DNA of 64,000 bases from Gemmatimonadales bacterium (GTDB lineage Bacteria; Gemmatimonadota; Gemmatimonadetes; Gemmatimonadales; GWC2-71-9), in the NCBI GenBank assembly GCA_036556625.1, contig DATBJC010000089.1, positions 22,024 to 86,023 of the forward strand, written 5' to 3'. Numbering within the stretch: position 1 is the first letter of the stretch; each line of letters opens with the position of its first letter. Shown here in pieces: positions 2,206-25,580 of this stretch. Position numbers and translations under genes: made by a program. The notes beneath the pieces were generated by a model. It ran no database searches. It was not told the DNA's origin and saw nothing but the letters and a program-made list of their open reading frames with translations.

Positions 2206-3726
2206 ATGATGCACACCTTCCAGCGCTCGCGCCGCCTGGCCCGGTCTGGACCGCGCCGGCTCGCCAGCTCCAAGCATGTCCTGGGGGCCGTCATGACGCT
2301 GTCGGCCGGCGCCTGCTCGAGCGACCGGCTCACCGACAGCCTGGGCCAGATGAGTGAGTCCGATTCGCCCACCGCAGCCGCGACCATACCGCAGCCGCCG
2401 GGCCAGGATGCGGCTCGGGTGGTGCTGTCCTACAGCCAGCTAGTGCTCGGCCCGCCGGGGGCCCGGGCCACGATCGGCGTGCGCGCCTATGGCGACGACG
2501 GCCGGGAGTGGAGCGGGGTCACCATCCGCTGGTGGAAGAGCAGCATCTCGGCCTTCGCGCTCTCGGTGCTCGAATGCGCCACCCCCTGCAGCAGCGTGCT
2601 TTCGACCAGGGCGGTGGGGCAGGGCAAGGTCATCGTGCGCCACTACGGCGGGGTGGCGCGGGACACGATGCCGGTCACGATCACGGCCCAGCCGAACACA
2701 CCGGGCGATCCACCCCCGGACGACCCGCCGCCGGACGACCCGCCGCCGGACGACCCGCCGCCCCCACCGGGTCCGCTGCCCGACGGCTGCCCAACGAACT
2801 ACGACCGGCTGGTCTCGGTCTCGTCCTCGGCGCAACTCGCCTCCGCAGTCCAGTCGGCCGCGCCGGGAGATCTCATCCGGGTCGCCGCCGGGACGTACAC
2901 CAGTCCGCCCGAGCTGACCCGGAGCGGCACCGCGTCGGCACCGGTCGCCATCTGTGGCACCGGGGCGCCGATCCTCAAGCGGCAGTTCCGGGTGCGGGCC
3001 AACTATGTGGTCATCGCGGGGCTCGTCTTCGAGGGACCGATCGACGGGAACACCAACCAGGTGTGGATCCACGAGGCGCACCACGTGACCTTCACCCGGA
3101 ACGAGATCCGGGGGAACGACTACCACGCGGGGCTGAGCGTGGACGAGGCGAACCACATCGTCATCACCTACAACTACATCCACGACAACGGGCGGGATAC
3201 TTCCCACGACCACGGGATCTATTTCAAGACCACCTCGGGTCCGGGCAGCGTCATCTCGAACAACCTGCTGGTGCGCAACGCGGCCCGCGGGCTCTCGCTG
3301 CACGACAACAGCGGGGCAGGGGTCTACGATGTGCTGGTCAGCCACAACACGGTCGTCGGGAACGGCTCCACCGGCATTCTGGTGAACGACGGGGACCGGA
3401 TGACGCTGGCGAACAACATCTCCGCCTTCAACGGCGATAAGACCTCTCAGCGGCAGATCCGGATCCGGGCCGGGAACAACAACCGGGCGTACAACAACCT
3501 GACCTACCATCCCACGAGCAGCCGGGCCGGCATCGAGAATGAGACCGGCAGCGTCCTCTCGGGCAATCGGGTCGGCGATCCGCGGTTCGTGTCACAGCTG
3601 GGCAATCTCCGGCTTCAGACCGGCAGTCCGGCGATCGATCTCGGCCGCTCGGATTACACCGCCGGGTCGGATTACGACGGTCGCGCTCGCGGCGCTGCCC
3701 CCGACGCGGGAGCCTTCGAGCGGTGA
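2206..3726 (+). CDS. Secreted lipoprotein (protein A): Ig-like module X, a (PPPDD)n linker and a right-handed parallel beta-helix (pectate-lyase-fold) domain.
   Basis: Track ORF 2155..3726. The preferred start is ATG 2206, with GGAGGAG 9 nt upstream. The N-terminus MMHTFQRSRRLARSGPRRLASSKHVLGAVMTLSAGAC has a lipobox. Module X lies at about 2410-2688. The beta-helix lies at about 2785-3723 and shows repeated rungs (VTFTRNEIRGN, IVITYNYIHDN, SVISNNLLVRN, VLVSHNTVVGN, MTLANNISAFN). Confidence 0.75.
   Translation: MMHTFQRSRRLARSGPRRLASSKHVLGAVMTLSAGACSSDRLTDSLGQMSESDSPTAAATIPQPPGQDAARVVLSYSQLVLGPPGARATIGVRAYGDDGREWSGVTIRWWKSSISAFALSVLECATPCSSVLSTRAVGQGKVIVRHYGGVARDTMPVTITAQPNTPGDPPPDDPPPDDPPPDDPPPPPGPLPDGCPTNYDRLVSVSSSAQLASAVQSAAPGDLIRVAAGTYTSPPELTRSGTASAPVAICGTGAPILKRQFRVRANYVVIAGLVFEGPIDGNTNQVWIHEAHHVTFTRNEIRGNDYHAGLSVDEANHIVITYNYIHDNGRDTSHDHGIYFKTTSGPGSVISNNLLVRNAARGLSLHDNSGAGVYDVLVSHNTVVGNGSTGILVNDGDRMTLANNISAFNGDKTSQRQIRIRAGNNNRAYNNLTYHPTSSRAGIENETGSVLSGNRVGDPRFVSQLGNLRLQTGSPAIDLGRSDYTAGSDYDGRARGAAPDAGAFER
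2388..2687 (+). repeat. Dispersed 300-bp repeat, copy 1. It encodes Ig-like module X of protein A.
   Basis: It aligns collinearly and without gaps to 8044-8343. Long identical runs include ctcggcccgccgggggcc, atccgctggtggaagagcagc and ggcaaggtcatcgtgcgccactacggcgggg. At protein level 73 of 93 residues are identical by hand count. Confidence 0.8.
2716..2760 (+). repeat. Three perfect tandem copies of the 15-bp unit ccggacgacccgccg, encoding the PDDPP linker.
   Basis: Read directly from the sequence. The units are 2716-2730, 2731-2745 and 2746-2760. Confidence 0.9.
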
Positions 3727-3793
3727 GCCCATAGCCGTTTCTTGGCAACGGGTCACGGGACCCGGGGCTCTCGCGGCCGCGCCGGATTGGTTT

Positions 3794-3840
3794 GTGTAGG
3801 GGTGGCTCCACATTCGTGGAGGCACCCCTACACCTTTTGG
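3794..3840 (+). terminator. Rho-independent terminator downstream of protein A.
   Basis: The stem pairs 3794-3811 (gtgtaggggtggctccac) with 3816-3833 (gtggaggcacccctacac), 17 of 18 pairs. The loop is attc and the tail is cttttgg. Confidence 0.7.
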
Positions 3841-4137
3841 AGACCTCGCGGGCGCCGGTATACCGGTCTAGCCTCAAATCTTCCCACGCGTTAGGAGACG
3901 GCCGCTCAAAATCGAGACAGGTCGAACCGCCCAAGCACATTTATTGCACTCTCAAGGCTGATTAGCACTTCCGACCGCTGTTCACGCAATGCCGAAAGAA
4001 CCAGGTCCATTCGCTTCACCAAAGCGCCGACACAAGTCGCGATGCCGAGGTCGACCGTTCAGGTACGTGACCACGAATTAGCCCGTCAGTGGCCGACTTG
4101 TTGCGGATGGGGCCGTAACGCATGAGGCATTCTTAGT

Positions 4138-7023
4138 ATGCCCCGCCCTCCCAGGTTCCTCCGCGCACTGCATGCCGTCATTGTGGTGACGGGCATCGTC
4201 GCGCTCGCCACCTGCTCCGACCCGACGGCGCCGGGTCCGGCGCTCGAGCGCGTCAGTGAAGGCCCGCCGAAGTTCCTCACCCCCACGGGGCTGGAATCCT
4301 CGATCGCTCCCGTCATGTTCACCGGGGCCGGCGACATCGCGAGCTGCAGCAAGACCGATGACAGCCAGACCGCCGCCCTGCTGGACGCCATACCAGGCCC
4401 GATCTTCGCCCTGGGCGATGTGGTATACGAGAACGGGACCACAAGCGAGTTCAACAATTGCTACGCGCCGACCTGGGGCCGCCATAAGGATCGGACCTGG
4501 CCGTCGGCGGGCAATCACGAGTACAACACTTCCGGCGCGACTCCCTACTACAACTATTTCGGCCAGCGGGCGGGGCCCCCGGGGCTAGGCTACTACAGCT
4601 TCGACCTCGGCGCCTGGCATGTCGTGGTGCTCAACACCAACATTTCGAGAAGCCCCACCTCGCCTCAGGTGCAGTGGCTCCGGCAGGACCTGGCGGATCA
4701 TCCCAACCAATGCACGCTCGCCTACTTTCACCACCCGCTGTACTCCTCGACCGGCGGCTCGGGTAACACTGGTGCCACGTACTCCAGCGTGCGGACTCTC
4801 TACGACACGCTGTATGCCGGCGGCGCGGACCTGGTCCTCGCTGGACATCGGCACTTCTACGAGCGGATGGCCCCCGTCCGACCCAACGGCACGCTGGATC
4901 CTCAGTTCGGCCTGCGGGTGATCATCGTCGGCACGGGAGGCATCGGCGGCGGCACGCTGACCAACCTTCATCCGTCGAGCGAGGTGCGCAACGGCGACAC
5001 GCGCGGGGTCCTTCGGCTCCATCTGTACGAAGACAGCTACGCGTGGAAGTTTGTGCCGGTGGCGGGGAAGACTTTCACCGACTCGAGCTTTACCGCCTGC
5101 CACGGCGCTCCGCAGGGGGGTGGCGGTGGCGGCATCTCGGCGTCCGCTTCGACCGTGACCGCTACGCCGAACACCATCACGGCCAGCAACGGGTCCAGCA
5201 CCGCGACCATCACCGTGACCGTGAAGAACGGCAGTGGGGCGCCGGTGAGCGGCGCGACGGTCGTGCTCTCCGCCACCGGCACTGGCAACACGATCACCCA
5301 GCCCGCCGGGCCGACGGGCGCCAACGGAGTGGCGACAGGTACCCTGCGCTCGACGGTAGCCGGCAGCAAGACCATCACCGCGACGATGTCCGGCACGACC
5401 GCCAACCAACAGCCGGTCGTGACGGTCAACCCCGCTGCCGCCGCCGCGCTCGGCTTCAGCGTCCAGCCCAGCAATGCCAATGTCGGGCAGCCGATCACAC
5501 CCGCAGTGCAGGTCGAAGTGCGCGATCAGTTCGGAAACCGCGTCACCGGCGCGACCAATGATGTCACCGTCAGCCTGGGAACCAATCCGACCGGAGCGAC
5601 GCTGGGCGGCACCAAGACCGTGGCGGCCAGCGCTGGCACCGCCAGCTTCTCCACCCTCACCGTGGACCGGGCAGGCACTGGGTACACCCTGGCCGCTCAG
5701 GCTACCGGCCTGACCAACGCGCCCCCTTCCACCGGATTCAACGTGACAGCGCCGCCACCTCCGGTGTCGGCCACGCTGTCGGATGTTGAGGTGAACCCGG
5801 CTTCCATCGCAGCTGGTGAGTCGTCCACCATCACGGTGACGGTGAAGGACGCACAGGGGGCTGGGTTGAGCGGCGTGACGGTCTCGCTCGCCGCCACCGG
5901 CAGCGGCAACACGCTGGGGCAGCCCGGTCCGACCGACGCATCCGGCGTGACGACCGGGACGCTCTCATCCACGGTCCCGGGAACGAAGACCATCACGGCC
6001 ACAGCAGGAGGAACCACCCTGGCGGACCAGCCGGCCGTGACCGTCAGTGCGGGGCCGCCCAATCCGATTCAGTCCACCGTGACGGCCTCGCCCACTCGGA
6101 TCCTCGCGGACCTGGGCACGTCGACCATCACCGTCAGAGTCCGGGATGCCTACGGGAACCCGGTGAGCGGGGTCGCGGTCGCCTTGGACGCGAATCCGGC
6201 GAGCGGAACCAACCTGACGCAGCCGGGAAACACTGATGCCAATGGTTTGGCTACTGGATCGCTGAGCTCTTCGGTCCCGGGCGACAAGATCGTTTCCGCC
6301 AGCGCAAACGGCACCCCATTGAGCCAGACGGCCACCGTGACCGTGACGAACGAGCAGGTGGCCACGATCTCACACTCGCTCCTGACCGTCGGCGCCGATC
6401 CCGCCAACGTCAAGGTGTACACCACGGCGCCAATCTCGCCCGCGCCCAATACGCTGGTGACCGTGGCCGTCCTCACCCATCGCAGCTCGATGCCGGCACC
6501 CACGGCGGTGGTCACCGGTGGCGGGATGTCGAACTGGACGGAAGTGGCGGCCGTCACCTTCGACCCGGTGGGGGCTCCGATCAAGCGGCTCGCGGTCTTC
6601 CGGGCCATGAGCGCGGCGCCAGGCAGCGGCCCGCTGACGATCACGTTCAACCTCACCGCCTCCCACGCCGAGTGGATCGTGTCGCAGTGGGACGGCGTCG
6701 AGACCAGCGGCGCCAACGGAGTAGACGCCATCGTCCAGGCGGCGACCAACCGAGCCGATGCGAGTGGCGGGCTGAGTGTGCAGCTCAACCCCTTCGAGCA
6801 CCCCAACAATGTGGCGTATGGCCTCTTCGGCGTGAACAGCAAGGTGGCCGCGATCACGCCGGGCGGTGGCTTCACCGAAATCGCCGAGCAGACGTCGACC
6901 GAAAACACGACCGGGACCATTCAGGCCGAATGGGCCACCGACCGGAGCCTTATCAATGCCTCCTGGGTGAATCTGCGCGCGGGCGCGCTCGGCCTGGAGC
7001 TTCGGGCAGACAGCGGTCCCTGA
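4138..7023 (+). CDS. Secreted lipoprotein (protein B): purple-acid-phosphatase-like metallophosphoesterase, four Ig-like domains and unassigned C-terminal domain Z.
   Basis: 961-aa ORF. The N-terminus MPRPPRFLRALHAVIVVTGIVALATC has a lipobox. All five MPE motifs are present at about 4309-5103 (GAGDIASC, GDVVYENG, GNHEY, FHHPLYSS, GHRHFYER). Ig-like repeats of about 95 aa lie at about 5131-6351, three of them Big_1/invasin-like (pattern TITVTVKD..G.P.SG..V.L.A.G). Domain Z, about 220 aa (6358-7020), is shared with the 10896 gene. Confidence 0.8.
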   Translation: MPRPPRFLRALHAVIVVTGIVALATCSDPTAPGPALERVSEGPPKFLTPTGLESSIAPVMFTGAGDIASCSKTDDSQTAALLDAIPGPIFALGDVVYENGTTSEFNNCYAPTWGRHKDRTWPSAGNHEYNTSGATPYYNYFGQRAGPPGLGYYSFDLGAWHVVVLNTNISRSPTSPQVQWLRQDLADHPNQCTLAYFHHPLYSSTGGSGNTGATYSSVRTLYDTLYAGGADLVLAGHRHFYERMAPVRPNGTLDPQFGLRVIIVGTGGIGGGTLTNLHPSSEVRNGDTRGVLRLHLYEDSYAWKFVPVAGKTFTDSSFTACHGAPQGGGGGGISASASTVTATPNTITASNGSSTATITVTVKNGSGAPVSGATVVLSATGTGNTITQPAGPTGANGVATGTLRSTVAGSKTITATMSGTTANQQPVVTVNPAAAAALGFSVQPSNANVGQPITPAVQVEVRDQFGNRVTGATNDVTVSLGTNPTGATLGGTKTVAASAGTASFSTLTVDRAGTGYTLAAQATGLTNAPPSTGFNVTAPPPPVSATLSDVEVNPASIAAGESSTITVTVKDAQGAGLSGVTVSLAATGSGNTLGQPGPTDASGVTTGTLSSTVPGTKTITATAGGTTLADQPAVTVSAGPPNPIQSTVTASPTRILADLGTSTITVRVRDAYGNPVSGVAVALDANPASGTNLTQPGNTDANGLATGSLSSSVPGDKIVSASANGTPLSQTATVTVTNEQVATISHSLLTVGADPANVKVYTTAPISPAPNTLVTVAVLTHRSSMPAPTAVVTGGGMSNWTEVAAVTFDPVGAPIKRLAVFRAMSAAPGSGPLTITFNLTASHAEWIVSQWDGVETSGANGVDAIVQAATNRADASGGLSVQLNPFEHPNNVAYGLFGVNSKVAAITPGGGFTEIAEQTSTENTTGTIQAEWATDRSLINASWVNLRAGALGLELRADSGP

Positions 7024-7055
7024 GTCCGCGGCGAGCTAGCTGGCCGACGAGGCAG

Positions 7056-7090
7056 AGCGGGAGAACGATTGGATCGTTCTCCCGCTTTGT
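7056..7090 (+). terminator. Rho-independent terminator downstream of protein B.
   Basis: A perfect 14-bp stem pairs agcgggagaacgat (7056-7069) with atcgttctcccgct (7073-7086). The loop is tgg and a T-rich tail ttgtcttg follows. Confidence 0.75.
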
Positions 7091-7140
7091 CTTGCGCTCG
7101 CGGACGCAAGGAGTAGCAGCTCTGGGCCGGCGGGCTGTTC

Positions 7141-7300
7141 CGAAGATGAATAGTGTCTAGAAATATTGCAGAAAATTGTTACAATATCCTGCACGCTTCA
7201 CTTCAATATCCCCGTCCGACAACCACTTGCAAGTAACAGCACGGATCAGGAGGCAGCGGATTGTAAAAAAAATGTGGATTGCGCAATCCCTCCGATAAAC
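7141..7300. promoter_or_regulatory. AT-rich, palindrome-dense spacer. It is the probable promoter/operator region for protein C.
   Basis: A hand count gives about 43% G+C over 160 bp (35% in 7141-7200), against GC-rich flanks. It contains ATTGCA (7165-7170), the palindromes ATTGTtACAAT (7175-7185) and CTTGCAAG, an A8 tract (7265-7272), and the perfect 14-bp palindrome GGATTGCGCAATCC (7276-7289). Confidence 0.4.
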
Positions 7301-7561
7301 ATTACCGTGGTCGCCCGGACGGAAGGGAGCGGTGAGGGTAAGTGACGGTTCCGTCCCACCTGTAGTGTCTCACCCGGAACCAATGCTCCCGGTCCCTTCC
7401 AGGCTCCTGCGCTTTCTCCGGCGCGGACTCGCCGGTCCTAACGCGCCTCCGTGAACTCGCCGCCATCGGCACCGGCTCCCGGTGCCCTGCAAGTGGATCG
7501 CCCTCGTGGGGAACTCCTCGTGTCCCCGTCTCTGAAATCAATCTGTTGGAGGGTCACCGGT

Positions 7562-10456
7562 ATGCATATCAGCCGCTGGACCGGCTGGGCGCGGGTCGTC
7601 GTGGTGAGCGTGCTCGCCGGCCTGTTCGCCTGTACCGCGACGACGCCGCCGACCGACGAACTCGAGCCGGTCGATGATGCCGTCGGCCTGGTCGATAACC
7701 CTGCCGCCAGAATCACCCTGAGTCTCGATACCCTATGGTTCGCCCAGGCCGGGCAAGAGGCTCAAGTCAGCGTGCAGGCGTTCGACGCCGACGGCCGCGA
7801 GTTGACCGGAGCCCGAATCAAGTGGTGGGGGAACAACGCCGAGCGCTTCACCTTCACGCCTGAGCTCTGCACGGCGCCGTGCTCGGTGACGGTACACAGC
7901 GGAAGCGAAGGGTTGGGCAAGTTGATCGCCCATGAGTACGGCGGCGTGGCACGCGATACCACGTGGGTAAGGGTGGGTGGAGACGCTCCGCAGGGCTCGG
8001 CAGGGAGTCCCCCGCCGACGAACCAGACGCCGGAGCCGCCCATCCCGCAGCCGCCGGGCGAGAACGCGGCCCGCATCACGCTGTCCTACAGCGACCTGGT
8101 GCTCGGCCCGCCGGGGGCCCAAGTCACGGTGAGCGTGCGCGCCTTCGGCGCGGATGGCCGGGAATGGAGCGGGGTGCCGATCCGCTGGTGGAAGAGCAGC
8201 AACACCACGTTCAGCCTCTCGGTCCGCGAGTGCCGCAGCCCCTGCAGCAGCGTCCTTTCGACCAGGGCCGTGGGCGGGGGCAAGGTCATCGTGCGCCACT
8301 ACGGCGGGGTCGCCCGGGACACCATGCCGGTCAGGATCACGGCGGAGTCGAACCCGCCGACCGAGCCGCCGCCAAGTGAGCCGCCGGGTGAGCCGCCGCC
8401 GGGTGAGCCGCCGCCGGGTGAACCGCCGCCGGGTGAACCGCCGCCGCCACCCCCGCCGCCACCGCCGCCGGTGGGTGCGAGCTGCAACTTGACGGGCGCG
8501 ACCGTTCTCGCAGGCACCCGGAGCTCTCAGTTCCGCGTCGACGGGGTGCCGGCTGGCCGGGTCTATGACGCGCGGTCATTTGCCGTGCGGTACAGCGCAG
8601 CTGGTGGTGCAGTGAGGGTGGCTGGTGGGGCCAACATCTGTTGGCACGGTGGGCGAGTGCTCGGCACGATGGATTCGGTCACCACGTCTTGGGCGACCTA
8701 CCACGATGCCTACGGTTTCCACCTGACCGGCAACACCCTCATCATCGAAGACGTGTACGCCGAGAACGTAGGTGATGGGATCAAGTGGATCGAGGAGAGC
8801 ACCAACAACTTCACGATCCGGCGGGTGCACCTCAAGGACATGAAGGACGATTGCGTAGAAACGGACTGGCTGAGGGGTGGCAGCATCAGCGACGTCCTGT
8901 TCGAAGGGTGCTACGTGTTCCTGGGCATCCGGCCACGCTCCAGTGTCAGCCTCAACGGCAGCGGGAACACCATCACCGTCGATGGGGCGGTGGTCTGGCA
9001 TAAGCACATCCGGAACGGCTACAACGGCGAGCCGGACAACGCGGGGCAGATCTTCAAGGTTGATGGTGGCACGCCGTCGACGAGCCCGAGGCTGCGGCTC
9101 CGGAACATCGTCCTCCGGGTAGATCCCCACCCGAACACTAGCGGTGGTGGGAGTCCCTACTCGCTCAATCCCGGCGGCATCGTGGTGGAGTCGGCGAACA
9201 ACACCCTGGTCTGGACCGGCGCCGGGGCATATCCCGAGGCGGTGCCGTCCGGCTGGACTCTCACCCGGGACAAGGGCGTCTACGACCGCGCTGTTGCCGC
9301 CTGGAAGGCGCGGAACAGCCAAGGAGCTCCACCCCCGGCACCGCCGCCGCCGCCGCCGCCGCCAGGGCCGGCGCCGGTTGCGACCGTTACGGTGAGCCCG
9401 TCCGCTCCGTCGGTGCTCGCGGACGCCACAGTGCAGCTGGCCGCGAGCCTCCTGGATGCGGCAGGCAACCCGCTGTCGGGACGGACGGTGACGTGGTCCA
9501 GCGCGGCGACTGGCATCGCGACCGTGAGCTCGAGTGGCCTGGTCAGAGGCGTCGCGGCGGGCCAGGCCGTGATCACCGCTTCGAGTGAAGGCAAGAGTGG
9601 CAACGCGTCGGTCATGGTGACGGCGGGATCTTCACCTCCGCCTCCGCCGCCCCCGCCGCCGCCGGGCGGTGCCGTGACCCTGCTCGCGGTGGGCGACATC
9701 GCCGACTGCGGCAGCAGCGGGGACGAAGCCACTGGCAGACTGGTGGACGCGTATCCGACGACCCCGATCATCACCCTGGGCGACAATGCCTACGACGACG
9801 GCAGCACCAGCGATTTCGCGAACTGCTACGAACCGTCGTGGGGTCGGCACAAGGCCCGGACCCGGCCTTCACCGGGCAACCACGACTATCACGAGTCCGG
9901 CGCCGGGCCCTACTATGCGTACTTCGGCGCCAACGCCGGCCCGGCCGGTCGGGGCTACTACAGCTTCGATCTGGGCGACTGGCACCTCATCTCGCTCAAC
10001 AGTAACGTGAGCATGTCGGCCGGCTCGGCCCAGGAGCAGTGGCTGCGAGCGGACCTCGCCGCGACGACCAAGCGCTGCGTGCTGGCCTACTGGCACCACC
10101 CGCGGTTCAGCTCTTCCAAGCATGGGAATGAGTCTGACACCCAGCCGCTGTGGCAGGCGCTGTACAATGCCGGCGCGGAGCTGGTGCTCGCGGGGCACGA
10201 CCACTCCTATGAGCGATTCGCCCCCCAGACTCCGAGCGGCGCGGCCGATCCGACCAACGGCGTTCGGAGCTTCGTCGTGGGCACCGGCGGCCGGAAGTTC
10301 TACTCGCTGGTCACTCGCCAGCCCAACAGCGAGGCGTTCGGGAGCAATACCTACGGCGTGCTCAAGCTGACGCTGGGCGCGACCAGCTACAGCTGGCAGT
10401 TCCTCGCGGCTGGAGGGGGTACCTACACCGATTCGGGGACCGGTCAGTGCAAGTGA
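7562..10456 (+). CDS. Secreted lipoprotein (protein C): two Ig-like X modules, a (PPGEP)n linker, unassigned domain Y, a Big_2 domain and a C-terminal metallophosphoesterase.
   Basis: Track ORF 7451..10456. The preferred start is ATG 7562, with GGAGGG 8 nt upstream. The N-terminus MHISRWTGWARVVVVSVLAGLFAC is lipobox-like. Module positions: X1 7706-7978, X2 8066-8344, Pro-rich linker 8345-8470, Y 8471-9316, Big_2 9374-9625 (VTVSPS..VQLAASLLDAAGNPL..VTWSS..IATVSSSGLV..AGQAVITA), MPE 9671-10453 (VGDIADC, GDNAYDDG, GNHDY, WHHPRFSS, GHDHSYER). Confidence 0.8.
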   Translation: MHISRWTGWARVVVVSVLAGLFACTATTPPTDELEPVDDAVGLVDNPAARITLSLDTLWFAQAGQEAQVSVQAFDADGRELTGARIKWWGNNAERFTFTPELCTAPCSVTVHSGSEGLGKLIAHEYGGVARDTTWVRVGGDAPQGSAGSPPPTNQTPEPPIPQPPGENAARITLSYSDLVLGPPGAQVTVSVRAFGADGREWSGVPIRWWKSSNTTFSLSVRECRSPCSSVLSTRAVGGGKVIVRHYGGVARDTMPVRITAESNPPTEPPPSEPPGEPPPGEPPPGEPPPGEPPPPPPPPPPPVGASCNLTGATVLAGTRSSQFRVDGVPAGRVYDARSFAVRYSAAGGAVRVAGGANICWHGGRVLGTMDSVTTSWATYHDAYGFHLTGNTLIIEDVYAENVGDGIKWIEESTNNFTIRRVHLKDMKDDCVETDWLRGGSISDVLFEGCYVFLGIRPRSSVSLNGSGNTITVDGAVVWHKHIRNGYNGEPDNAGQIFKVDGGTPSTSPRLRLRNIVLRVDPHPNTSGGGSPYSLNPGGIVVESANNTLVWTGAGAYPEAVPSGWTLTRDKGVYDRAVAAWKARNSQGAPPPAPPPPPPPPGPAPVATVTVSPSAPSVLADATVQLAASLLDAAGNPLSGRTVTWSSAATGIATVSSSGLVRGVAAGQAVITASSEGKSGNASVMVTAGSSPPPPPPPPPPGGAVTLLAVGDIADCGSSGDEATGRLVDAYPTTPIITLGDNAYDDGSTSDFANCYEPSWGRHKARTRPSPGNHDYHESGAGPYYAYFGANAGPAGRGYYSFDLGDWHLISLNSNVSMSAGSAQEQWLRADLAATTKRCVLAYWHHPRFSSSKHGNESDTQPLWQALYNAGAELVLAGHDHSYERFAPQTPSGAADPTNGVRSFVVGTGGRKFYSLVTRQPNSEAFGSNTYGVLKLTLGATSYSWQFLAAGGGTYTDSGTGQCK
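8044..8343 (+). repeat. Dispersed 300-bp repeat, copy 2. It encodes module X2 of protein C.
   Basis: See the 2388-2687 entry. Same length, collinear, same reading frame. Confidence 0.8.
8387..8446 (+). repeat. Four tandem 15-bp units (ggtgagccgccgccg twice, ggtgaaccgccgccg twice), encoding the GEPPP linker.
   Basis: Read directly. The units are 8387-8401, 8402-8416, 8417-8431 and 8432-8446. A degenerate copy precedes them and a CCG-rich poly-Pro run follows to about 8470. Confidence 0.9.
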
Positions 10457-10481
10457 ACTGACCTCGGGCAGACCGTCTTTC

Positions 10482-10530
10482 CGACCCGGCCGGGAGCCAT
10501 CAGCGGTTCCCGGCCGGGTCGTTTCGTTCG
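10482..10530 (+). terminator. Rho-independent terminator downstream of protein C.
   Basis: A perfect 14-bp GC-rich stem pairs cgacccggccggga (10482-10495) with tcccggccgggtcg (10508-10521). The loop is 12 nt and the tail is tttcgttcg. Confidence 0.75.
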
Positions 10531-10895
10531 AGGCGCGGCTACCACACTTCTGGCGTCCAGCGTCTACGCGTGGTCACCGGCGTTTGGCGGATTCCGACGG
10601 GAGATCCCCTCGTCGAAGGTGTTGGTGGCGCTTGCGTTCCCACATGCGCTCGGATGCCGCACACCTGAGCACAGATCTTGCGCGATATGCAATTTCTAGC
10701 ACGCGACCTCATCACTCGACTTGTGAACTTCGGCGCTGCGGAATCGCCGTACCGAGTTGCCGTCGCTCGCCTGGCTGGAAGCCCCCGGTGATCCGGGTGC
10801 CGGGAGAACCGACGTCGGTGTTCACCCAAGAACTGGTGCCTGCGGGCGCCTGGCGCTGCCACCTGCAGACCGTCGCGCCGCGAGGACCATAGATC

Positions 10896-13148
10896 ATGAT
10901 GAGGTTACGCCCACTCTTCGTCACTCCGGCCATCGCCCTGACGGTGCTGGGACTCGTCACCTGCACCGGCGACAGCGGACTCACCGGGGTCAGCGACGAC
11001 GGCCGGGCCACGGCCTCCCGTCCCGCGGGCGGTGGCGCGGCGGTGATCGGCACGCCGGAGATCCTGGTCGGTGCGGGGGACATCTCCACCTGTAGCAACA
11101 ACCTCGACGAGTCGACGGCGCGGATCATCGACACGGTTCCCGGCACCGTCTACACCCTCGGTGACAACGTCTACCCTGACGGGTTGGCGAGCGAGTTCAC
11201 CAACTGCTACCAACCAACCTGGGGACGCCACAAGGCGCGGACCCGCCCCGCGGCCGGCAACACCGATTACAACAGCTCCGGCGCCGCGCCCTATTTCAAC
11301 TACTTCGGGGCGTCCGCCGGCCAGCCCGGCCAAGGCTACTACAGCTACAACCTGGGCGCCTGGCACATCGTCGTGCTCAACAGCAACGTCCCACGGACGC
11401 CGGCGTCGCCCCAGATGCAGTGGCTCCGCGCGGACCTGGACGCCAACCCGAGACAATGCACCCTCGCCTATTTCCACCATCCACTGTTCTCCTCGATCAA
11501 CGGGACCGGGACGGGGGGGAGTGTGTGGACCAGCGTGCAGCCTTTCTGGGATACCCTCTACTCCCGGGGGGCGGACCTGGTGCTCGGCGGGCACCGCCAT
11601 TCCTACGAGCGCCTGGCCCCGGTCCGGCCGGACGGCACCCCGGACCCGACCTTCGGCATTCGCCAGTTCGTCGTCGGCACCGGAGGCGTCGGCGGCGGCA
11701 CGAACAACAATCTCCACCCCGCCAGCGAGGTCAGAAACGGCGATACCCGCGGCGTGCTCAAGCTCTACCTCTACGATGACAGCTACGCCTGGAAGTTCAT
11801 CCCCATCGCCGGCAAGACCTTCACCGACTCCGGCACCGTCGCCTGCCATCCTGCTCCGGGCGCAGCCGCGCCGACCGTATCGGCCACCTTGTCCACGATC
11901 TCCGCGGATCCCACGACGATTGTCGCCGGGGGCGGCTCGTCCACCATCACGGTGACCGCACGAAACTCCAGCGGCGATCCCGTGAGCGGGGCCTCAGTGG
12001 TGCTCTCGGCCACCGGCGGCGGCAACACGATCGTTCAGCCGTCCGCACCGACCGATGCCGCGGGTGTGGCCACCGGCAGCTTCAGCTCGACTGTGGCCGC
12101 AACGTCCAAGACGATCTCGGCCGTGATCAGCGGAGTTGCCATCACCCAGACGGCGCTGGTCAGGGTCAACGCCGGCCCCGCGTCGGCGGCGCACTCGACC
12201 GTGGCGGCCAGCCCCACCAGTATCGTGGCCGGCGGCGGGAGCTCGACCATCACCGTGACGGTGCGGGACCCGCACGGCAACCCGGTGAGCGGCTCGACGG
12301 TGGCGCTGTCGGCCAGCGGGACGAGCAACTCGCTCACCCAGCCAGGGGGAACGACCAACGGCAACGGTCTGGCGATCGGCGCCTTGACTTCAAGCGACGC
12401 GGAGGTGAAGACCGTTTCCGCCACGGCCGACGGCACTCCCATCACGCAGACGGCCGACGTGACCGTGACCCCGCCGGCAGGGGGCGGCGGCCAGATCGTG
12501 CATACTCTGCTCACCTCGGGCAACGGAACGGACAACGTCAAAGTATTCACCACGGCCTCGATCTCCCCGGCGGCGAACGCACTGGTCACCGTTGCGGTGC
12601 TCGGCCACCGGTCGTCGGCCGCGTCGGCCGCTCCGACGCTGACCGGAGGCGGCATGGGCAGCTGGACCCAGGTGGCCACCGTCACGTTCGACACCGTGAC
12701 CGGGCCGCTCAAGCGACTTGTGGTCTACCGCGCGATGAGCGCCTCCCCGGGTAGCGGCCCGATCACGATCTCCTGGCCGGGCACCGTGTCCAACTCGCAG
12801 TGGATCGTCTCCCAGTGGACCGGGGTGGATGCGAGCGGCGCGAACGGGGCGGGGGCCATCGTCCAGAGCATAGGCGTCAGCGGGGACAGGGTCAGTGGGC
12901 TCACCGCCACACTCGCCCCGCTCGGAGCGCCGCATCACGTCGCCTACGGCGTGGTGGGAATGAACGGAAACGGGCTCGTGGTCTCACCAGGAGCCGGCTT
13001 CACGGAGATCGCCGAGCAATCCTCCGGCGAAGCCGCGCGCGCGGTGCTGCAAACCGAGTGGACGACCGGTGACAACACGGTCGATGCGAGCGGACCCGGG
13101 TCGCTGAACGCCGCGATCCTGGGGATCGAGCTCAAACCGGCGCCCTGA
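10896..13148 (+). CDS. Secreted lipoprotein (protein D), a paralogue of protein B: metallophosphoesterase with GNTD in place of GNH(D/E), two Big_1-like Ig domains and domain Z.
   Basis: 750-aa ORF. The N-terminus MMRLRPLFVTPAIALTVLGLVTC has a lipobox. MPE motifs are GAGDISTC, GDNVYPDG, GNTDY (11256-11270), FHHPLFSS and GHRHSYER. Ig repeats lie at about 11870-12470. Domain Z lies at 12492-13145. Confidence 0.8.
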   Translation: MMRLRPLFVTPAIALTVLGLVTCTGDSGLTGVSDDGRATASRPAGGGAAVIGTPEILVGAGDISTCSNNLDESTARIIDTVPGTVYTLGDNVYPDGLASEFTNCYQPTWGRHKARTRPAAGNTDYNSSGAAPYFNYFGASAGQPGQGYYSYNLGAWHIVVLNSNVPRTPASPQMQWLRADLDANPRQCTLAYFHHPLFSSINGTGTGGSVWTSVQPFWDTLYSRGADLVLGGHRHSYERLAPVRPDGTPDPTFGIRQFVVGTGGVGGGTNNNLHPASEVRNGDTRGVLKLYLYDDSYAWKFIPIAGKTFTDSGTVACHPAPGAAAPTVSATLSTISADPTTIVAGGGSSTITVTARNSSGDPVSGASVVLSATGGGNTIVQPSAPTDAAGVATGSFSSTVAATSKTISAVISGVAITQTALVRVNAGPASAAHSTVAASPTSIVAGGGSSTITVTVRDPHGNPVSGSTVALSASGTSNSLTQPGGTTNGNGLAIGALTSSDAEVKTVSATADGTPITQTADVTVTPPAGGGGQIVHTLLTSGNGTDNVKVFTTASISPAANALVTVAVLGHRSSAASAAPTLTGGGMGSWTQVATVTFDTVTGPLKRLVVYRAMSASPGSGPITISWPGTVSNSQWIVSQWTGVDASGANGAGAIVQSIGVSGDRVSGLTATLAPLGAPHHVAYGVVGMNGNGLVVSPGAGFTEIAEQSSGEAARAVLQTEWTTGDNTVDASGPGSLNAAILGIELKPAP

Positions 13149-13155
13149 CGTCGCC

Positions 13156-14118
13156 TTGCACGCGAACCGATCGTTCAGCCGAATCACAGGCGGGCGCGCG
13201 AGGCTCTGCGCTCCCGCGCTCGTCCTCTTCCTCACGGCGGGGGGCGATCAGGCTCCTCCGACACCATCCTGTCTCGAGCGTCCACACCCGCAGCTTGCGA
13301 TCATCGGCCTGCAGGTGAAGGGCTGGATGGCGAAAACCCTGCCCGACAACACGATCATCGATGCGCGGAGCGCCCGGTGGATCGGCGCGGCCGATTCTCC
13401 GGTGCGCTGGGGCGGTGGCGATGCTCTCTGCTGGACCGGAGGTCTGGTCCAGGGCCTCTACCCCGAAACCGACTCCTGGAGCCGACTCCACGACACCAAG
13501 GCGATGCGGGTGGGGCAGACCGGCGGCGCGAGAGCGACCATCGAGGGCTTCCGCGCGATCAATTATGGCGACGGCATCAGCCTGGAGGACGGGGCGGAAG
13601 ATTTCCTGATTCGCGGCGTGCATCTCACCCACATGCGGGACGACTGCATCGAGGACGACTTCGCCCGCGGCGGCACGATCGAGGACAGCTTCTTCGAAGG
13701 GTGTTACGTCTGGATCGCCACCCGGCCGCGTCCGTCCAAAGCCGCCGGCGTGGATGGCTCCGGGCGCCGCCTCCTGATCGAGCGCAACGTGGTCTGGATG
13801 GAGCCGATGGCCTCGGTGTACTCGGGACCGTCGCCCTCCACCAGCGCCGTGTTCAAGGTGGACCGATCGCCGCCGTCGGTGAGCCCCAAGATGATCCTGC
13901 GGCACAACGTGCTGCGGGTGGATGTGGCACCGGGGGTGGGGGATGCCTGCCTCGATCCGGAGGCCCTGGTGGTGGAGTCTGTGGGCAACGTGGTGGTGTG
14001 GCTGGGGGAGGGGGAGTACCCATGCCTGCCCCTTCCGAGGGGCTGGTCACTCACCCGCGACCGAGCCGTGTGGGAGCAGGCGGTGGCAGCCTGGAAGGCG
14101 CGACACCCGGGCTCCTGA
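13156..14118 (+). CDS. Secreted protein (protein E) consisting of stand-alone domain Y.
   Basis: 320-aa ORF with a TTG start 7 nt after the stop of protein D. The N-terminus is signal-peptide-like (RARLCAPALVLFLTAGGD) and has no lipobox Cys. It aligns along its length with 8471-9316 of protein C. Shared blocks include CW.GG, GDGI, VHL..M.DDC.E.D..RGG.I.D..FEGCYV....RPR and GW.LTRD......AVAAWKAR. Confidence 0.7.
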   Translation: MHANRSFSRITGGRARLCAPALVLFLTAGGDQAPPTPSCLERPHPQLAIIGLQVKGWMAKTLPDNTIIDARSARWIGAADSPVRWGGGDALCWTGGLVQGLYPETDSWSRLHDTKAMRVGQTGGARATIEGFRAINYGDGISLEDGAEDFLIRGVHLTHMRDDCIEDDFARGGTIEDSFFEGCYVWIATRPRPSKAAGVDGSGRRLLIERNVVWMEPMASVYSGPSPSTSAVFKVDRSPPSVSPKMILRHNVLRVDVAPGVGDACLDPEALVVESVGNVVVWLGEGEYPCLPLPRGWSLTRDRAVWEQAVAAWKARHPGS

Positions 14119-14132: not shown

Positions 14133-15188
14133 TCACTCCTCGGCTCCGGCCGGTGCCGGAATGCGGGCCTCGGGAGCGTGCGTGGCGGGTCCCGCCCGCT
14201 TCCGCATCACACCCTGATAGAGTTCGATCAGCCGCCCGGTCTGCACCGACTCGTCGAGTGACTGCACGGCCACGCGACCTCGAACTCTCGCCCCCCGCCG
14301 GAGCGCACGCTCCAGCGCCGCCGCAATGGTCTCCGGGCGCTCATCCACACACAGCTCGCACCCTACGATATCGCGGATGCGCTCGGGAACGTCCCCCACG
14401 GGGACCGAGACGACGGGGAGATCGCACGCCAGCGCCTCCTTGACCACGTTCGGCGATCCCTCCTGCAGCGACGTGAACACCAGGACGTCGGCTGCGCTCA
14501 TGTAGAGCGGTACTTCGGTGTGAGCGACGCCCCAAAGCACCACCAGCTCCGCCGGGACCGATCGCTGCAGGATGGACACGGCCTGCTCGGCAAGCTGGTA
14601 GCGCTTCCGCCCCTGGGTAGGGCGGCCGGCGAACAGCACCAGCGGCCGGTCAGGATCGAGGCCGAGGCGCCGGCGCGCCTCGTCGCGGGGGTGGGGGCGA
14701 AACAGGGAGAAGTCCAATCCGGAAGGGATGACGGTGGCCTTCACGCCGGTCGGCAGGCTCTCCTTCATGTGCTCGGAGACCACCACCACGGCGTCGGCCT
14801 GTCGGGCCACCAGGCGGCTTGCCGCCTGGAGGGCCCGGCCGACCCAGGTTCGCTGGCCATCCCGATCGCTGACGATCCCGAGAAGATCGCTTCCCCGGAA
14901 CGTCACCACGAGGGGAATCCGCTTGGGTAAGGCCAGCAGGCCGCTCTGGCCGAACTGGGCGTGGACCAGGTCGTATTCCCGAGTCAGCAGCCGACGTCGA
15001 ACCTCGACCCACGGACGGGCGTAGCGCCACGGCTGCCGCAACCCCTTGAAGTGGAACACGTCCACCTCGACCCCGGCCGCCATGAGGAAATTCGCCTGGC
15101 GCTGGATGAAGTGGGTCGTCGCCTCCTGCCCGCGATGCGGCCAGGCGCTGGTGATCATGAGAACCCGGATCGGTCGCTCCATGCTCAT
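14133..15188 (-). CDS. Glycosyltransferase, family 4 (GT-B fold).
   Basis: 351-aa ORF. It reads RVLMITSAWPHRGQEATTHFIQRQANFL at the N-terminus, with SLQEGSPNVVKEALACDLPVV (an EX7E-like region) later. Its ATG overlaps the stop of the upstream gene (ATGA at 15185-15188). Confidence 0.8.
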   Translation of the reverse strand: MSMERPIRVLMITSAWPHRGQEATTHFIQRQANFLMAAGVEVDVFHFKGLRQPWRYARPWVEVRRRLLTREYDLVHAQFGQSGLLALPKRIPLVVTFRGSDLLGIVSDRDGQRTWVGRALQAASRLVARQADAVVVVSEHMKESLPTGVKATVIPSGLDFSLFRPHPRDEARRRLGLDPDRPLVLFAGRPTQGRKRYQLAEQAVSILQRSVPAELVVLWGVAHTEVPLYMSAADVLVFTSLQEGSPNVVKEALACDLPVVSVPVGDVPERIRDIVGCELCVDERPETIAAALERALRRGARVRGRVAVQSLDESVQTGRLIELYQGVMRKRAGPATHAPEARIPAPAGAEE

Positions 15189-15847
15189 TTCCCCGAGTTG
15201 GCGTTCAAGGCGCGCCGCTCGGTGACGAGGCGTGCGAGCTCACTGGTGGTGCGGGGGAGATCGGCGTTGTCGAGCACCACGGCGGACGGAACCCAGCCGA
15301 ACACCCGCCGATACGCGACCGCCCGGCGGGCCAAGTAGTCGATCGAGAACTCCGACTTCCTGGCGAACGCCACTTCAGGACTGGTGTCGAGGAGAATCGG
15401 GAGGTGCGGCGTCGGCGTGATCCAGGAGAGGACCCGCGCCCAGCCCCAGCTCCGCGGGCCGGCGACGTCCACCAACGTGTCGTAGAAATACCGATCCATG
15501 ATCAGCACCCGTCCCCGTACCCTCTCGATGTAGAACCGGTAGACCGCGAAGATGCCGAGGTCGACGAGGTAGATGATTCGCCGCGCCGCCTTGTTCCACA
15601 CCACGGCGTAGCGGAGTCGCTTCCATCGGGAGTCGATCTGGCGGGCTTCGACCGGCGGTGCGTGCCGCCCATCGCGTGGGCGGGCGCGCAGGCGGTTCCT
15701 GACCGCCATTCCGGCGGCCAGGAGGCCGACGTCGTAGGTCATGTGACACACCACGACCGACTCGTTCGCCGCTTCCAGCCGCGACTTGAGCCTGCCGATG
15801 AGGGTGGACTTGCCGGAGCCGTCGAGCCCCGAGAACGTGATCAGCAT
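15185..15847 (-). CDS. Thymidylate-kinase-like P-loop NTPase of unknown substrate.
   Basis: Track ORF 15185..16069. The preferred start is ATG 15847, 5 nt after the stop of the upstream gene. The sequence reads MLITFSGLDGSGKSTLIGRL (Walker A) and later VLIMDRYFYDT (a DRY-type motif). An Arg-rich insertion lies between them. Confidence 0.65.
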   Translation of the reverse strand: MLITFSGLDGSGKSTLIGRLKSRLEAANESVVVCHMTYDVGLLAAGMAVRNRLRARPRDGRHAPPVEARQIDSRWKRLRYAVVWNKAARRIIYLVDLGIFAVYRFYIERVRGRVLIMDRYFYDTLVDVAGPRSWGWARVLSWITPTPHLPILLDTSPEVAFARKSEFSIDYLARRAVAYRRVFGWVPSAVVLDNADLPRTTSELARLVTERRALNANSGK

Positions 15848-15852
15848 CGCGC

Positions 15853-17133
15853 TCACATTCTGCGGGCACGGGCGGAGCCGGTCCCCTGGAGGGAGGCCGG
15901 ATCCGAAAGCCACGCGCTCTTGCTGGCGAATCCGAGCGCCATGACCATCCAGAACAGCGGGCTCGCCAGCCGATTCTGCGTCATATTGCTGGCGAGGATG
16001 GCGAGAACCAGCGCGAGCGGGAGCACACCGCGGGGCCCGGCCCGGGCGCCCCACGCGGCATGGAGGCATAGCCAGGTTCCCAGCAGGAATGGGATCGCTC
16101 CCAGCAGTCCCGCGGTCGTGAGCACATCGAGCAGGATGTTGTGGGTATCACGACTGTCGTGCAGCGCGTCGTTCAGCCGTGCCGCGAGCTCGCGCTTGTT
16201 GGCGGTCGGCCCCCAGCCGAGCACGGGTCGCTCCAGGATCATGTCCACCGCGATGGGCCAGATCCGGTCGCGGCCCGACATGTGTCCGCTCTCGACCGTC
16301 TTCTCCACCCGGGCACGCATGACCTCGGACTGCAGGGCCAGGAACCCCAGGCCTGCCAGCAACACGCCCCCTACCAGCAGGTTCCTGACGCGAACCCGGA
16401 GGGTCTGGCCGCTCCCCAGGAACATGAGCACCCCGATGGCGGTGGTGACCAGGCCGCCACGCGATCCGGTCTCGATGATGCCGACGGCGATGAGCCCCGC
16501 ACCCGCCCATATGAGAGGGCGCACGGCGCGCCCCCGGCGGTGCTGCGCATAGGCCAGGCCGATGAGCGCCAGCAGTCCCATGGCGAGCACCTGGGCGCTC
16601 TGATTCGGATTCTGGTTCAGTGCGGCGACCCGCTCCACGCCCTTGGCGCTGACGCTCTGGGAGAGCCCGAGCAGCGGGAGCAGCGCTCGTACGACGCACC
16701 CGACGATGAGCGCCCAGAGAGCCGCGCGATACACCCGCGGGTCTCGCAACAGGTTGGCGCAGGCCCAGAAGAGGAGCAGCCAGGTGGTGAGCCGGACCGT
16801 CTGGATCAGGGCCTCGGTGCTGAACACTCCAGCGGGGTAGGTCCCCCCATTGGTGGCGAACGCGACCAGCACGACGAACAGGAACATCGCGAAGCACACC
16901 ACCGGCCATGGGACGCGACCGTAGCTGGCCTGGGGGTCCAGCAAGGTCACCAGCACGAAGAGCGAGCCGGTCATGGTGGTGACTTCGTAGGCGAACAGCT
17001 CGGGCGCTTCGAGTGGGAGCGAGAACGCGAAGAAAGCCAGCGCCAAGACCACGATCGTGGCCACCGAGGTTCTGGCCTCGGTTCCCATGCCTGCCTGTTG
17101 GGCCAGGGGCGTGGCGAGCGGCCTCGCGCTCAT
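15853..17133 (-). CDS. O-antigen ligase / Wzy-like polysaccharide polymerase family membrane protein.
   Basis: 426-aa polytopic membrane ORF. The central segment (IIETGSRGGLVTTAIGVLMFL) resembles the Wzy_C/O-antigen ligase core. Confidence 0.7.
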   Translation of the reverse strand: MSARPLATPLAQQAGMGTEARTSVATIVVLALAFFAFSLPLEAPELFAYEVTTMTGSLFVLVTLLDPQASYGRVPWPVVCFAMFLFVVLVAFATNGGTYPAGVFSTEALIQTVRLTTWLLLFWACANLLRDPRVYRAALWALIVGCVVRALLPLLGLSQSVSAKGVERVAALNQNPNQSAQVLAMGLLALIGLAYAQHRRGRAVRPLIWAGAGLIAVGIIETGSRGGLVTTAIGVLMFLGSGQTLRVRVRNLLVGGVLLAGLGFLALQSEVMRARVEKTVESGHMSGRDRIWPIAVDMILERPVLGWGPTANKRELAARLNDALHDSRDTHNILLDVLTTAGLLGAIPFLLGTWLCLHAAWGARAGPRGVLPLALVLAILASNMTQNRLASPLFWMVMALGFASKSAWLSDPASLQGTGSARARRM

Positions 17134-17160
17134 CGGGTCGGTCTCACCGGGGCGCGCATG

Positions 17161-24303: not shown

Positions 24304-24307
24304 GAAA

Positions 24308-25576: not shown

Positions 25577-25580
25577 GCGT

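Follow-up and report, generated by a model that had tools for sequence, protein, structure and literature searches.

A 64,000-nucleotide stretch of DNA from a Gemmatimonadales bacterium (GenBank assembly GCA_036556625.1, contig DATBJC010000089.1, positions 22,024 to 86,023), referred to as the window, contains five consecutive open reading frames (ORFs) on the + strand at 2206-14118, here named genes A to E. Their products are assembled from a shared stock of modules, comprising a purple-acid-type metallophosphoesterase domain (MPE; Pfam Metallophos, PF00149), immunoglobulin (Ig)-like domains and three further units that we call X, Y and Z, and a Wzx/Wzy-type exopolysaccharide (EPS) cluster (14133-28172) lies directly downstream of E. 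Here we describe the modules, the recurrent association of one of them, the predicted β-helix Y, with phosphoesterases and Wzx/Wzy genes, and the functions that may follow. All five frames show coding-type codon bias (G+C at third codon positions 0.83-0.89) in a window of about 68% G+C and uniform base composition. The genes and their parts, with lengths in amino acids (aa), are these:

Gene A, 2206-3726, + strand: 506 aa; X (2386-2730), a PPDD proline-rich linker (about 2697-2810) and a β-helix with a choice-of-anchor-Q tail (2821-3723).
Gene B, 4138-7023, + strand: 961 aa; a purple acid phosphatase (PAP)-like MPE (4303-5112, GNHEY), four Ig-like domains (5128-6357) and Z (6358-7020).
Gene C, 7559-10456, + strand: 965 aa; X (7694-8032), X (8045-8362), a PPGE/poly-Pro linker (8353-8480), the predicted β-helix Y (8495-9328), Big_2 (9377-9601) and a PAP-like MPE (9674-10453, GNHDY).
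Terminator-like hairpin, 10482-10521, + strand: directly 3′ of C; a 17-bp stem with 14 G-C pairs and the T-rich tail TTTCGTT.
Gene D, 10896-13148, + strand: 750 aa; a PAP-like MPE (11046-11855, GNTDY), two Big_1 domains (about 11868-12488) and Z (12489-13145).
Gene E, 13156-14118, + strand: 320 aa; Y alone (13276-14115), with no Pfam match.

This mosaic map, first drawn in an earlier note on the same DNA, is borne out by Pfam, NCBIfam and all-against-all BLASTP, in which modules common to the five genes match at E values from 1e-18 to 1e-160. The MPE domains of B and D are 60% identical (E = 6e-160) and that of C is 52-53% identical to both; the two Z copies share 54% identity (E = 1e-113) and the Y copies of C and E about 42-43% (E = 3e-53). 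A carries one copy of X and C two, at 77% and 38% identity, the closer pair being X of A and the second X of C (77% at the amino acid level, E = 2e-45; 83% at the nucleotide level over 300 nt). The gaps A-B, B-C and C-D measure about 410-540 bp and the gap D-E 8 bp. Because the hairpin lies 3′ of C, it suggests that C closes a transcription unit and that D and E form a separate one; it comes from a consensus scan only, in which three sites were found and 4.8 expected, and is hence weak evidence.

Each of the five proteins begins with a basic stretch followed by a hydrophobic one, in keeping with the signal peptides proposed previously, and in A-D the hydrophobic stretch ends in a cysteine: ...SAGAC/SSD in A, ...ALATC/SDP in B, ...GLFAC/TAT in C and ...GLVTC/TGD in D. 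The four lipoboxes proposed at the same time fare less well against the pattern [LVI][ASTVI][GAS]C, of which only C (LFAC) is a textbook example; in A (AGAC) the fit is borderline, and position -1 of B (LATC) and D (LVTC) is threonine, a residue outside the classical [GAS] rule of the PROSITE lipobox pattern. Orthologues of B and D likewise carry threonine at -1 (for example, ...AVTTC/TDN in L027, one of the comparison loci to which we give L numbers) and keep the cysteine, and from their sequences lipidation of B and D is likely. The N terminus of E resembles a signal peptide or anchor and has no lipobox. No known sorting motif was found at the C terminus of any of the five proteins.

The three MPE domains all exceed the Metallophos gathering cut-off of 21.5 bits (B, 34.2; C, 38.3; D, 25.1). 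Their sole PDB relatives are solved PAPs (E = 3e-9 for B and 9e-12 for C), and the alignments span the catalytic core alone. In a test of five blocks (D; GDxxY, contributing D and Y; GN, contributing N; H; and GHxH, contributing two H), the seven PAP metal ligands (D11, D39, Y42, N71, H143, H182 and H184) proved to be the same in B, C and D and in four relatives; four cysteines are also invariant in the three domains and their relatives. The PAP-like assignment made earlier therefore stands, and only its claim of a GNH(D/E) motif in every copy falls: motif III reads GNHEY in B, GNHDY in C and GNTDY in D, which has lost the motif-III histidine and kept all seven metal ligands. Across the family, GNH[DE]Y is kept in 107 of 120 members. 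The copies lacking the histidine are:

Window, 11046-11855: MPE of D, GNTDY.
L063, 188-997: MPE of the D orthologue, GNVEY.
L004, 5457-6251: MPE of a CBM96-MPE protein, GDGDY.
L084, 5470-6267: MPE of a CBM96-MPE protein, GDNEY.

In L004 and L084 the motif-III asparagine ligand is replaced by aspartate and the other six ligands are kept; L063 keeps all seven. To judge from sequence, the motif-III change in these copies, the ones bound most closely to EPS clusters, may reflect altered chemistry, such as that of a diesterase or pyrophosphatase. The domain is minimal, at about 270 aa, and no Pfam domain corresponding to the N-terminal PAP-specific domain of plant PAPs was found in B, C or D.

Structure prediction places Y with confidence among the right-handed β-helices: the AlphaFold2 model of the copy in E (pLDDT 89.8, predicted template-modelling (TM) score 0.86) consists entirely of short strands. 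Foldseek comparison with the PDB returned weak matches (E ≥ 0.01, TM score 0.35-0.46) in a list dominated by β-helix proteins, among them PfbA, pectin methylesterases, PL6 lyases, RbmB, polygalacturonase and tailspikes. At the sequence level, Pfam gave nothing at E ≤ 0.01 and, at E ≤ 10, Beta_helix alone (E = 0.3); NCBIfam gave no match at E ≤ 0.01, and there was none to PDB chains by single-sequence or profile search and none to PHROGs. A word index yielded 29 relatives, every source-given name being 'hypothetical', and an exhaustive profile search yielded 1,469 representative clusters at E ≤ 1e-3, with 702 at E ≤ 1e-30. The alignment is marked by the motifs NYGDG, RDDCIENDxxxxGxxEDSxFxGCY, FFKWD and NNxVVWLGxGxYP and by the invariant charged residues D139, D162, D163, D168, D177, K234, R254 and D256, an Asp/Lys/Arg set that would be compatible with a Ca2+-assisted lyase or hydrolase. 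Y is a candidate new carbohydrate-active family. Homology of Y to the β-helix of A was considered and rejected, their profiles showing no similarity.

Z is modelled as an all-β sandwich (pLDDT 93.8) that resembles phage proteins. In the viral structure library BFVD it has 88 matches at E ≤ 1e-3, including A0A6J5Q4D9, an uncultured Caudovirales protein (E = 6e-23, TM score 0.87, root mean squared deviation 1.4 Å, 24% identity), and many mycobacteriophage entries labelled 'minor tail protein' at TM scores of 0.65-0.75. Against the PDB, Foldseek gave noise only (TM score ≤ 0.35), and single-sequence and profile searches of PDB chains gave no credible match; an intimin match of the Z profile was rejected because it stems from Big_1 columns in the alignment. 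With no Pfam match at E ≤ 10 and no NCBIfam match at E ≤ 0.01, Z joins Y outside catalogued families, in line with the earlier note, which could place neither. The Z copies of B and D match no PHROG. P0099 and P0101, stand-alone Z-like proteins of about 230 aa on short metagenome contigs (27-40% identical to Z), form a possible sequence bridge from phage proteins to cellular Z, the more distant P0101 (27-29%) matching phrog_38872, a phage family of unknown function, at E = 4e-11. Among 72 relatives of Z retrieved by word index, 70 are at least 50% identical, and where the source names a taxon it is Gemmatimonadales, plus one Krumholzibacteria. The idea that Z is a C-terminal sorting signal of the T9SS-CTD or PEP-CTERM kind was rejected: it is about 215 aa long, also stands N-terminally or internally, and occurs up to three times in a protein. 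Since the modelled fold is that of a phage tail protein and a protein may carry one, two or three copies, the simplest reading of Z is as a putative glycan-binding module.

Between these modules, the Ig-like array of B comprises three Big_1/Invasin_D3 stretches recognised by Pfam and a fourth Ig-like stretch between them, and that of D comprises two Big_1 stretches. Isolated X gave nothing useful in Pfam at E ≤ 10; because its hhalign match to Big_2 is weak (P = 4e-4, probability 36%, first half only), we infer, and do not assert, its Ig-like identity, X probably being a divergent Big_2-like domain. Beyond the window X is rare, seen in P0006 (X, linker, Y) and L042. The β-helix of A matches Beta_helix (PF13229, E = 6e-14) and NosD (E = 2e-7) in Pfam, and its tail matches the choice-of-anchor-Q model in NCBIfam (NF041518, 28.9 bits against a cut-off of 25); no PDB chain was matched by single-sequence or profile search, and no PHROG. 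The linkers of A and C contain tandem repeats of 15-nt period (2697-2762, PPDD; 8353-8460, PPGE), in which slippage could alter length.

The adjoining EPS cluster contains a polymerase, a flippase, an initiating transferase, glycosyltransferases (GTs) and two P-loop proteins resembling thymidylate or adenosine 5′-phosphosulfate (APS) kinases:

14133-15188, - strand: GT4 glycosyltransferase, the first gene of the cluster, convergent with E.
15185-16069, - strand: Ploop1, a thymidylate/APS-kinase-like P-loop protein, the true start probably being an internal ATG at about 15847 (MLITFSGLDGSGKSTL).
15853-17133, - strand: Wzy-type polymerase (Wzy_C, 2e-18).
17161-18693, - strand: Ploop2, 510 aa, whose N-terminal half is unassigned and whose P-loop, GADGSGKSTL, is C-terminal.
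19134-20672, + strand: Wzx flippase (Polysacc_synt_3, E = 7e-79).
20850-22487, + strand: initiating sugar transferase (Bac_transf, 1e-59).
23074-24303, + strand: GT2.
24308-25576, + strand: ATP-grasp protein.
25581-28172, + strand: Wzc-like chain-length/tyrosine autokinase (TIGR01007, 135 bits against a cut-off of 108).

Ploop1, whose ORF overlaps Wzy by 217 nt, and Ploop2 are both of the thymidylate/APS-kinase-like type with the sequence GxDGSGKSTL, and could have a putative role in supplying phosphate or related anionic groups to the polymer. Homologues of Ploop2 (26-45% identity) occur in Y-containing EPS clusters of other phyla, and orthologues of the window GT4 (70-76%) adjoin MPE-Ig-Z genes in L027 and L063. 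No sulfotransferase was found in the window, either by Pfam or by tblastn with the sulfotransferases of L027.

Upstream of A stands a di-haem cytochrome c peroxidase (CCP)/MauG-like gene (1-1923, - strand) cut by the window edge. A 72% identical CCP orthologue is followed by MPE genes in L041, in the same position as at the left edge of the window, and from one genome to another the stretch separating the CCP gene from the EPS cluster holds different modules. The remainder of the window consists of housekeeping genes. Among them a Wzb-like low-molecular-weight phosphotyrosine phosphatase is encoded at 51070-51528 on the + strand, some 23 kb away from the gene for the Wzc-like kinase. No tRNA, Rfam element, phage gene or integrase was found in the window, and no pst or pho genes near the locus.

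The association of Y with EPS genes extends well beyond this genome. On seven of eight long contigs, which are Gemmatimonadales-like, Chloroflexi or unassigned, Y adjoins Wzx or sits one gene away from it inside a Wzx/Wzy cluster, and six of the seven also encode a Ploop2 homologue. A sulfotransferase and an ATP sulfurylase are present in four of them, and a Na/H exchanger in three of those four. These loci (L004, L082, L084 and L085; Chloroflexi-type and other) carry a PK/PUA_2/ATP-sulfurylase fusion beside the sulfotransferase, with the exchanger in L004, L082 and L084 and an APS kinase fusion in L084; we regard the type as a candidate sulfated-EPS cluster outside cyanobacteria. In L004 (Chloroflexi) and the similarly organised L084, a CBM96-MPE protein, 50-55% identical to B, C and D, is encoded two genes upstream of Y and Wzx.

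A profile scan of metagenomes with a trimmed Y alignment gave 41 loci of at least 7 kb, of which 23 contain EPS-type genes (core Wzx/Wzy/Wzc/Bac_transf genes in 15), 14 have an MPE of the B/C/D type 0.3-6.5 kb from Y, and 11 hold at least two Y copies. When 83 Y proteins of more than one domain were surveyed with Pfam, the catalytic domains joined to Y were solely Metallophos (three proteins), Phytase (two) and PF04185 Phosphoesterase (one), which are three unrelated phosphoesterase folds; CBM96 (15) and Ig-like or PKD domains make up the other partners. Because Y is fused to three phosphoesterase folds and recurrently lies close to MPE genes, we suggest that the polymer recognised by Y carries or retains the MPE substrate. 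The earlier note had not recognised the locus as a described system, and literature searches agree: no published description of the Y-phosphoesterase-Wzx/Wzy arrangement was found, nothing relevant on Gemmatimonadota PAPs or on MPE combined with EPS, and no Y/PAP-like MPE accessory set in the EPS-cluster descriptions returned. A term search of the text on the Actinoplanes wps-1 cluster (PMC13390465) gave no phosphoesterase or β-helix component.

Z has a narrower distribution. With each GTDB species represented by a single genome, a scan found 142 Z-encoding stretches, and 77 loci were kept, nearly all labelled as Gemmatimonadales, Gemmatimonadaceae or Gemmatimonadota metagenome-assembled genomes (MAGs), with several loci per genome. 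Recombination of the modules has given dozens of architectures across Gemmatimonadales. MPE-Ig-Z is the commonest among Z-containing ORFs; others are MPE-Ig-Z-Ig-Z-Ig-Z, Z-Big2(n)-..., Z-Big2(3-4)-Y-Ig-Z (L049 and L054) and, in L007, Z-Big2-MPE-Ig-Y-Ig-Z in one protein of 1,631 aa (ORF ending at 15491). Giant ORFs with two or three Z modules, from Gemmatimonadaceae and Gemmatimonadales, occur in L007, L049, L054, L016 and L015, the MPE-Ig-Z-Ig-Z-Ig-Z form measuring 1,734 aa, in stop-to-stop coordinates.

Several of the Z loci share gene order with the window. In L027, MPE-Ig-Z is followed by two sulfotransferases and then by GT4, Ploop1, Wzy, Ploop2 and Wzx; in L063, MPE-Ig-Z (71% identical to D) is followed by GT4 (76%). 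L009 and L026 have Ploop2 and Wzx and then MPE-Ig-Z, and L015, L017 and L031 have GT2, GT4, ATP-grasp, Wzy and Ploop2 and then MPE-Z-Ig-Z, except that GT2 is not in the portion of L017 examined. The L027 sulfotransferases (3837-4886, - strand, and 5327-6178, + strand; Sulfotransfer_3 and Sulfotransfer_1 in Pfam) occupy the position of E, which suggests that the cluster family to which L027 and the window belong often makes a sulfated EPS.

In the succession of genes B to E the earlier note had seen a tandem duplication of a two-gene cassette, MPE-Ig-Z followed by a Y gene. As a recent event this is rejected. The MPE domains of B and D, 60% identical to each other, are 69-72% identical to orthologues in other genomes; Y of C is 56% identical to that of P0006 and 50% to that of P0005, compared with 43% to E, and E itself has orthologues at 83% and 67-70%. 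Because orthologues elsewhere are closer than the local paralogues, B and D and the Y paralogues are, on sequence comparison, old lineages gathered or retained here, their duplication being old and not local. Nor did a survey of relatives show the pair to be a conserved cassette, since Y is present in only three of the 77 Z loci, each time within the same protein as Z. The most recent event at the locus is instead that relating X of A to the second X of C.

We consider it somewhat more probable than an even chance that the products of the five genes are modular proteins, secreted or tethered to the envelope, that serve the neighbouring Wzx/Wzy EPS pathway as accessories by binding or cleaving its polymer and by hydrolysing phosphate esters located on the polymer or close to it. 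Lipid or signal anchors, proline-rich linkers and Ig-like spacers (X, Big_1 and Big_2) would hold the modules out in the polymer layer. The β-helices (Y in C and E, Beta_helix in A) would bind the polysaccharide of the cluster and, by analogy with the β-helix enzymes WceF and RbmB considered below, would probably cleave or modify it. Z, as a phage-tail-fibre-like β-sandwich, would bind glycan, and in B, C and D the MPE would hydrolyse phosphate esters or diesters borne by the polymer or trapped within it. On this view, domain shuffling would have produced a family found throughout Gemmatimonadales, of which the locus is a single local example. Four parts of this proposal are inferred: that the proteins lie at the surface, that Z binds glycan, that Y is catalytic, and what the phosphatase acts on. 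A set of enzymes acting on a phosphorylated extracellular polymer, as envisaged in the earlier note, finds indirect support in the EPS cluster with its two P-loop kinase-like proteins and in the exclusively phosphoesterase catalytic fusions, and meets an obstacle in the sulfation genes of relatives; the substrate may be phosphorylated.

A number of observations weigh against such a role. EPS genes lie within 10 kb in only about 12 of the 77 Z loci, and the Y gene of Salsipaludibacter (L003), the sole exception among the eight long contigs, has no EPS neighbours. The sulfation genes of L004, L082, L084, L085 and L027 point to a sulfated, not a phosphorylated, polymer. No outer-membrane exporter (Wza/OPX, Poly_export) was found among the genes scanned at 14-44 kb, although one may lie elsewhere in the genome. 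Catalysis by Y is not established by its sequence or model, with no significant match to any solved enzyme, and because its frequent partner CBM96 is a non-catalytic alginate-binding module (PMC9971899), Y could do no more than bind. In addition, the MPE family is very large: at least 7,201 relatives were found at E ≤ 1e-10, most of them secreted stand-alone proteins about 300 aa long with identities near 60%, others being fused to Big_1, Big_2, PKD or CBM96; their source labels are 'acid phosphatase type 7', 'metallophosphoesterase' and 'alkaline phosphatase', and three stand-alone copies on long contigs have no EPS genes nearby.

This abundance of phosphatase-labelled relatives, together with the stand-alone copies outside EPS clusters, is what favours the main rival, phosphate scavenging. 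The MPE domains would then be general surface acid or alkaline phosphatases that Y, Z, CBM96 and the Ig-like domains merely tether to the matrix or to polymeric substrates, and adjacency to EPS genes would reflect anchoring. B and C do have the full canonical active site, and Y is fused elsewhere to phosphorus-scavenging enzymes, the β-propeller phytase and the PF04185 phosphoesterase. Against scavenging, Y genes stand alone, without a phosphatase, beside Wzx on seven of the eight contigs, which suggests a role for Y in the EPS pathway itself; the MPE copies with the closest linkage to EPS clusters (D, L063, L004 and L084) have lost the motif-III histidine, which is unexpected for a generic monoesterase; and the vicinity of the locus yielded no pst or pho genes. 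The two explanations overlap, and we see scavenging as a real possibility, if an unlikely one. A more specific proposal, which we offer tentatively and would not expect to hold in full, is that Y and the His-less PAP-type MPE act in an extracytoplasmic step of Wzx/Wzy pathways not described before. Y would hold the nascent anionic chain and the MPE would cut a phosphodiester or pyrophosphate, releasing the completed polymer from undecaprenyl pyrophosphate or editing phosphate-linked substituents once it has been exported, and the loss of histidine would mark a change from monoesterase chemistry to that of a diesterase or pyrophosphatase. The GNRD motif of LpxH is comparable to this replacement of the motif-III histidine.

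Non-enzymatic roles seem improbable. The Big_1/Invasin_D3 arrays dominate B and D, relatives are labelled 'adhesin/invasin' in source databases, some MPE copies have degenerate motifs, and WceF agglutinates in a lectin-like manner with its EPS (PMC7949094), all of which would suit intimin/invasin-like adhesins or a lectin-type matrix scaffold in which Ig arrays, Z and β-helices attach or cross-link and the MPE is vestigial. However, none of the seven metal ligands varies among B, C, D and relatives that are 50-65% identical overall, which indicates selection for catalysis, and Pfam found no inverse-autotransporter β-barrel or LysM domain in the five proteins. Least probable of all, and by a wide measure doubtful, is that the locus is a prophage remnant, its tailspike-like β-helix and tail-fibre-like Z left over from a phage, or a set of functionally unlinked neighbours in a recombination hot spot, even though the strong structural relatives of Z are phage proteins only, a stand-alone Z-like protein matches a phage family, and the genes lying between CCP and the EPS cluster vary among genomes. 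Against it stand the lack of phage genes, tRNA and integrase in a window of even composition, the lipoprotein-type N termini, the synteny of the locus across several MAGs and the fusion of Y, MPE and Z in single polypeptides elsewhere; a prophage origin is rejected.

The accessory reading that we prefer has partial precedents. WceF of Pantoea stewartii is a β-helical stewartan hydrolase encoded in an EPS cluster (PMC7949094), and RbmB of Vibrio cholerae is a β-helical lyase of Vibrio polysaccharide (PMC11637428, PMC12993940). Like these, Y is predicted to be a secreted right-handed β-helix of tailspike-like fold encoded in or beside the cluster of its presumed polymer substrate; unlike them, it has no sequence similarity to either, only a weak structural match to RbmB (E about 0.04, TM score about 0.36), its own motif set (NYGDG, RDDCIEND, FFKWD and VWLGxGxYP) and a recurrent link or fusion to phosphoesterases. 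The MPE domains share with PAPs and 'acid phosphatase type 7' proteins (PF00149) the five-block signature and the seven ligands, including the tyrosine of GDxxY, and differ from PAPs in their minimal size of about 270 aa without an N-terminal PAP domain, their four conserved cysteines, their embedding in lipoprotein-like mosaics with Ig, Z and Y, and, in D and the copies with the closest linkage to EPS clusters, replacement of the motif-III histidine (GNTDY, GNVEY, GDGDY and GDNEY). With the distal domains of phage tail fibres and minor tail proteins and with tailspike depolymerases, the set shares the fold of Z and the combination of a β-helix with a binding domain acting on capsules or EPS; Z differs from phage tail proteins in residing in chromosomal genes with lipoprotein-type N termini, at several loci per genome, in up to three copies per protein and without phage context.

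In its Wzx, Wzy, Wzc-like kinase, initiating transferase and GTs, the window cluster resembles other Wzx/Wzy EPS loci. The cyanobacterial synechan cluster, xss, is reportedly a sulfated-EPS locus of Wzx/Wzy type; related Y clusters resemble it in adding sulfotransferases, ATP sulfurylase and APS kinase, whereas the window cluster has no recognisable sulfotransferase and two kinase-like P-loop proteins instead. In the polysaccharide-utilisation loci of Bacteroidota, SusE/F-type surface glycan-binding lipoproteins combine a lipid anchor, tandem β-sandwich spacers and binding modules beside enzymes. The window proteins would share this concept of lipid-anchored spacers and binding modules, but the window has no SusC/SusD pair and its neighbouring genes are biosynthetic, not catabolic. 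With intimin and invasin, B and D share the Big_1/Invasin_D3 repeats alone, their N termini being MPE domains without an inverse-autotransporter barrel.

EPS clusters with a dedicated glycanase are known, and what appears new, as judged by literature searches, is an uncatalogued β-helix recurrently paired with phosphoesterases beside Wzx/Wzy genes. Y as a candidate carbohydrate-active family and Z as a phage-like, putatively glycan-binding module recruited into cellular proteins are targets for study, as is the natural series of PAP-type active-site variants (GNH, GNT, GNV, GDG and GDN). The variant active site in the MPE copies with the closest linkage to EPS clusters and the expansion of a phage-like Z in one bacterial order are further features of interest. 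The hosts are Gemmatimonadota and Chloroflexi of soil and sludge, whose poorly understood EPS matter for soil aggregation and granular sludge, and many of the clusters adjoining Y genes are of the sulfation type. The pairing of Y with phosphoesterases points, in these bacteria, to extracellular editing of anionic groups on polysaccharides or to matrix-organised phosphate harvesting.

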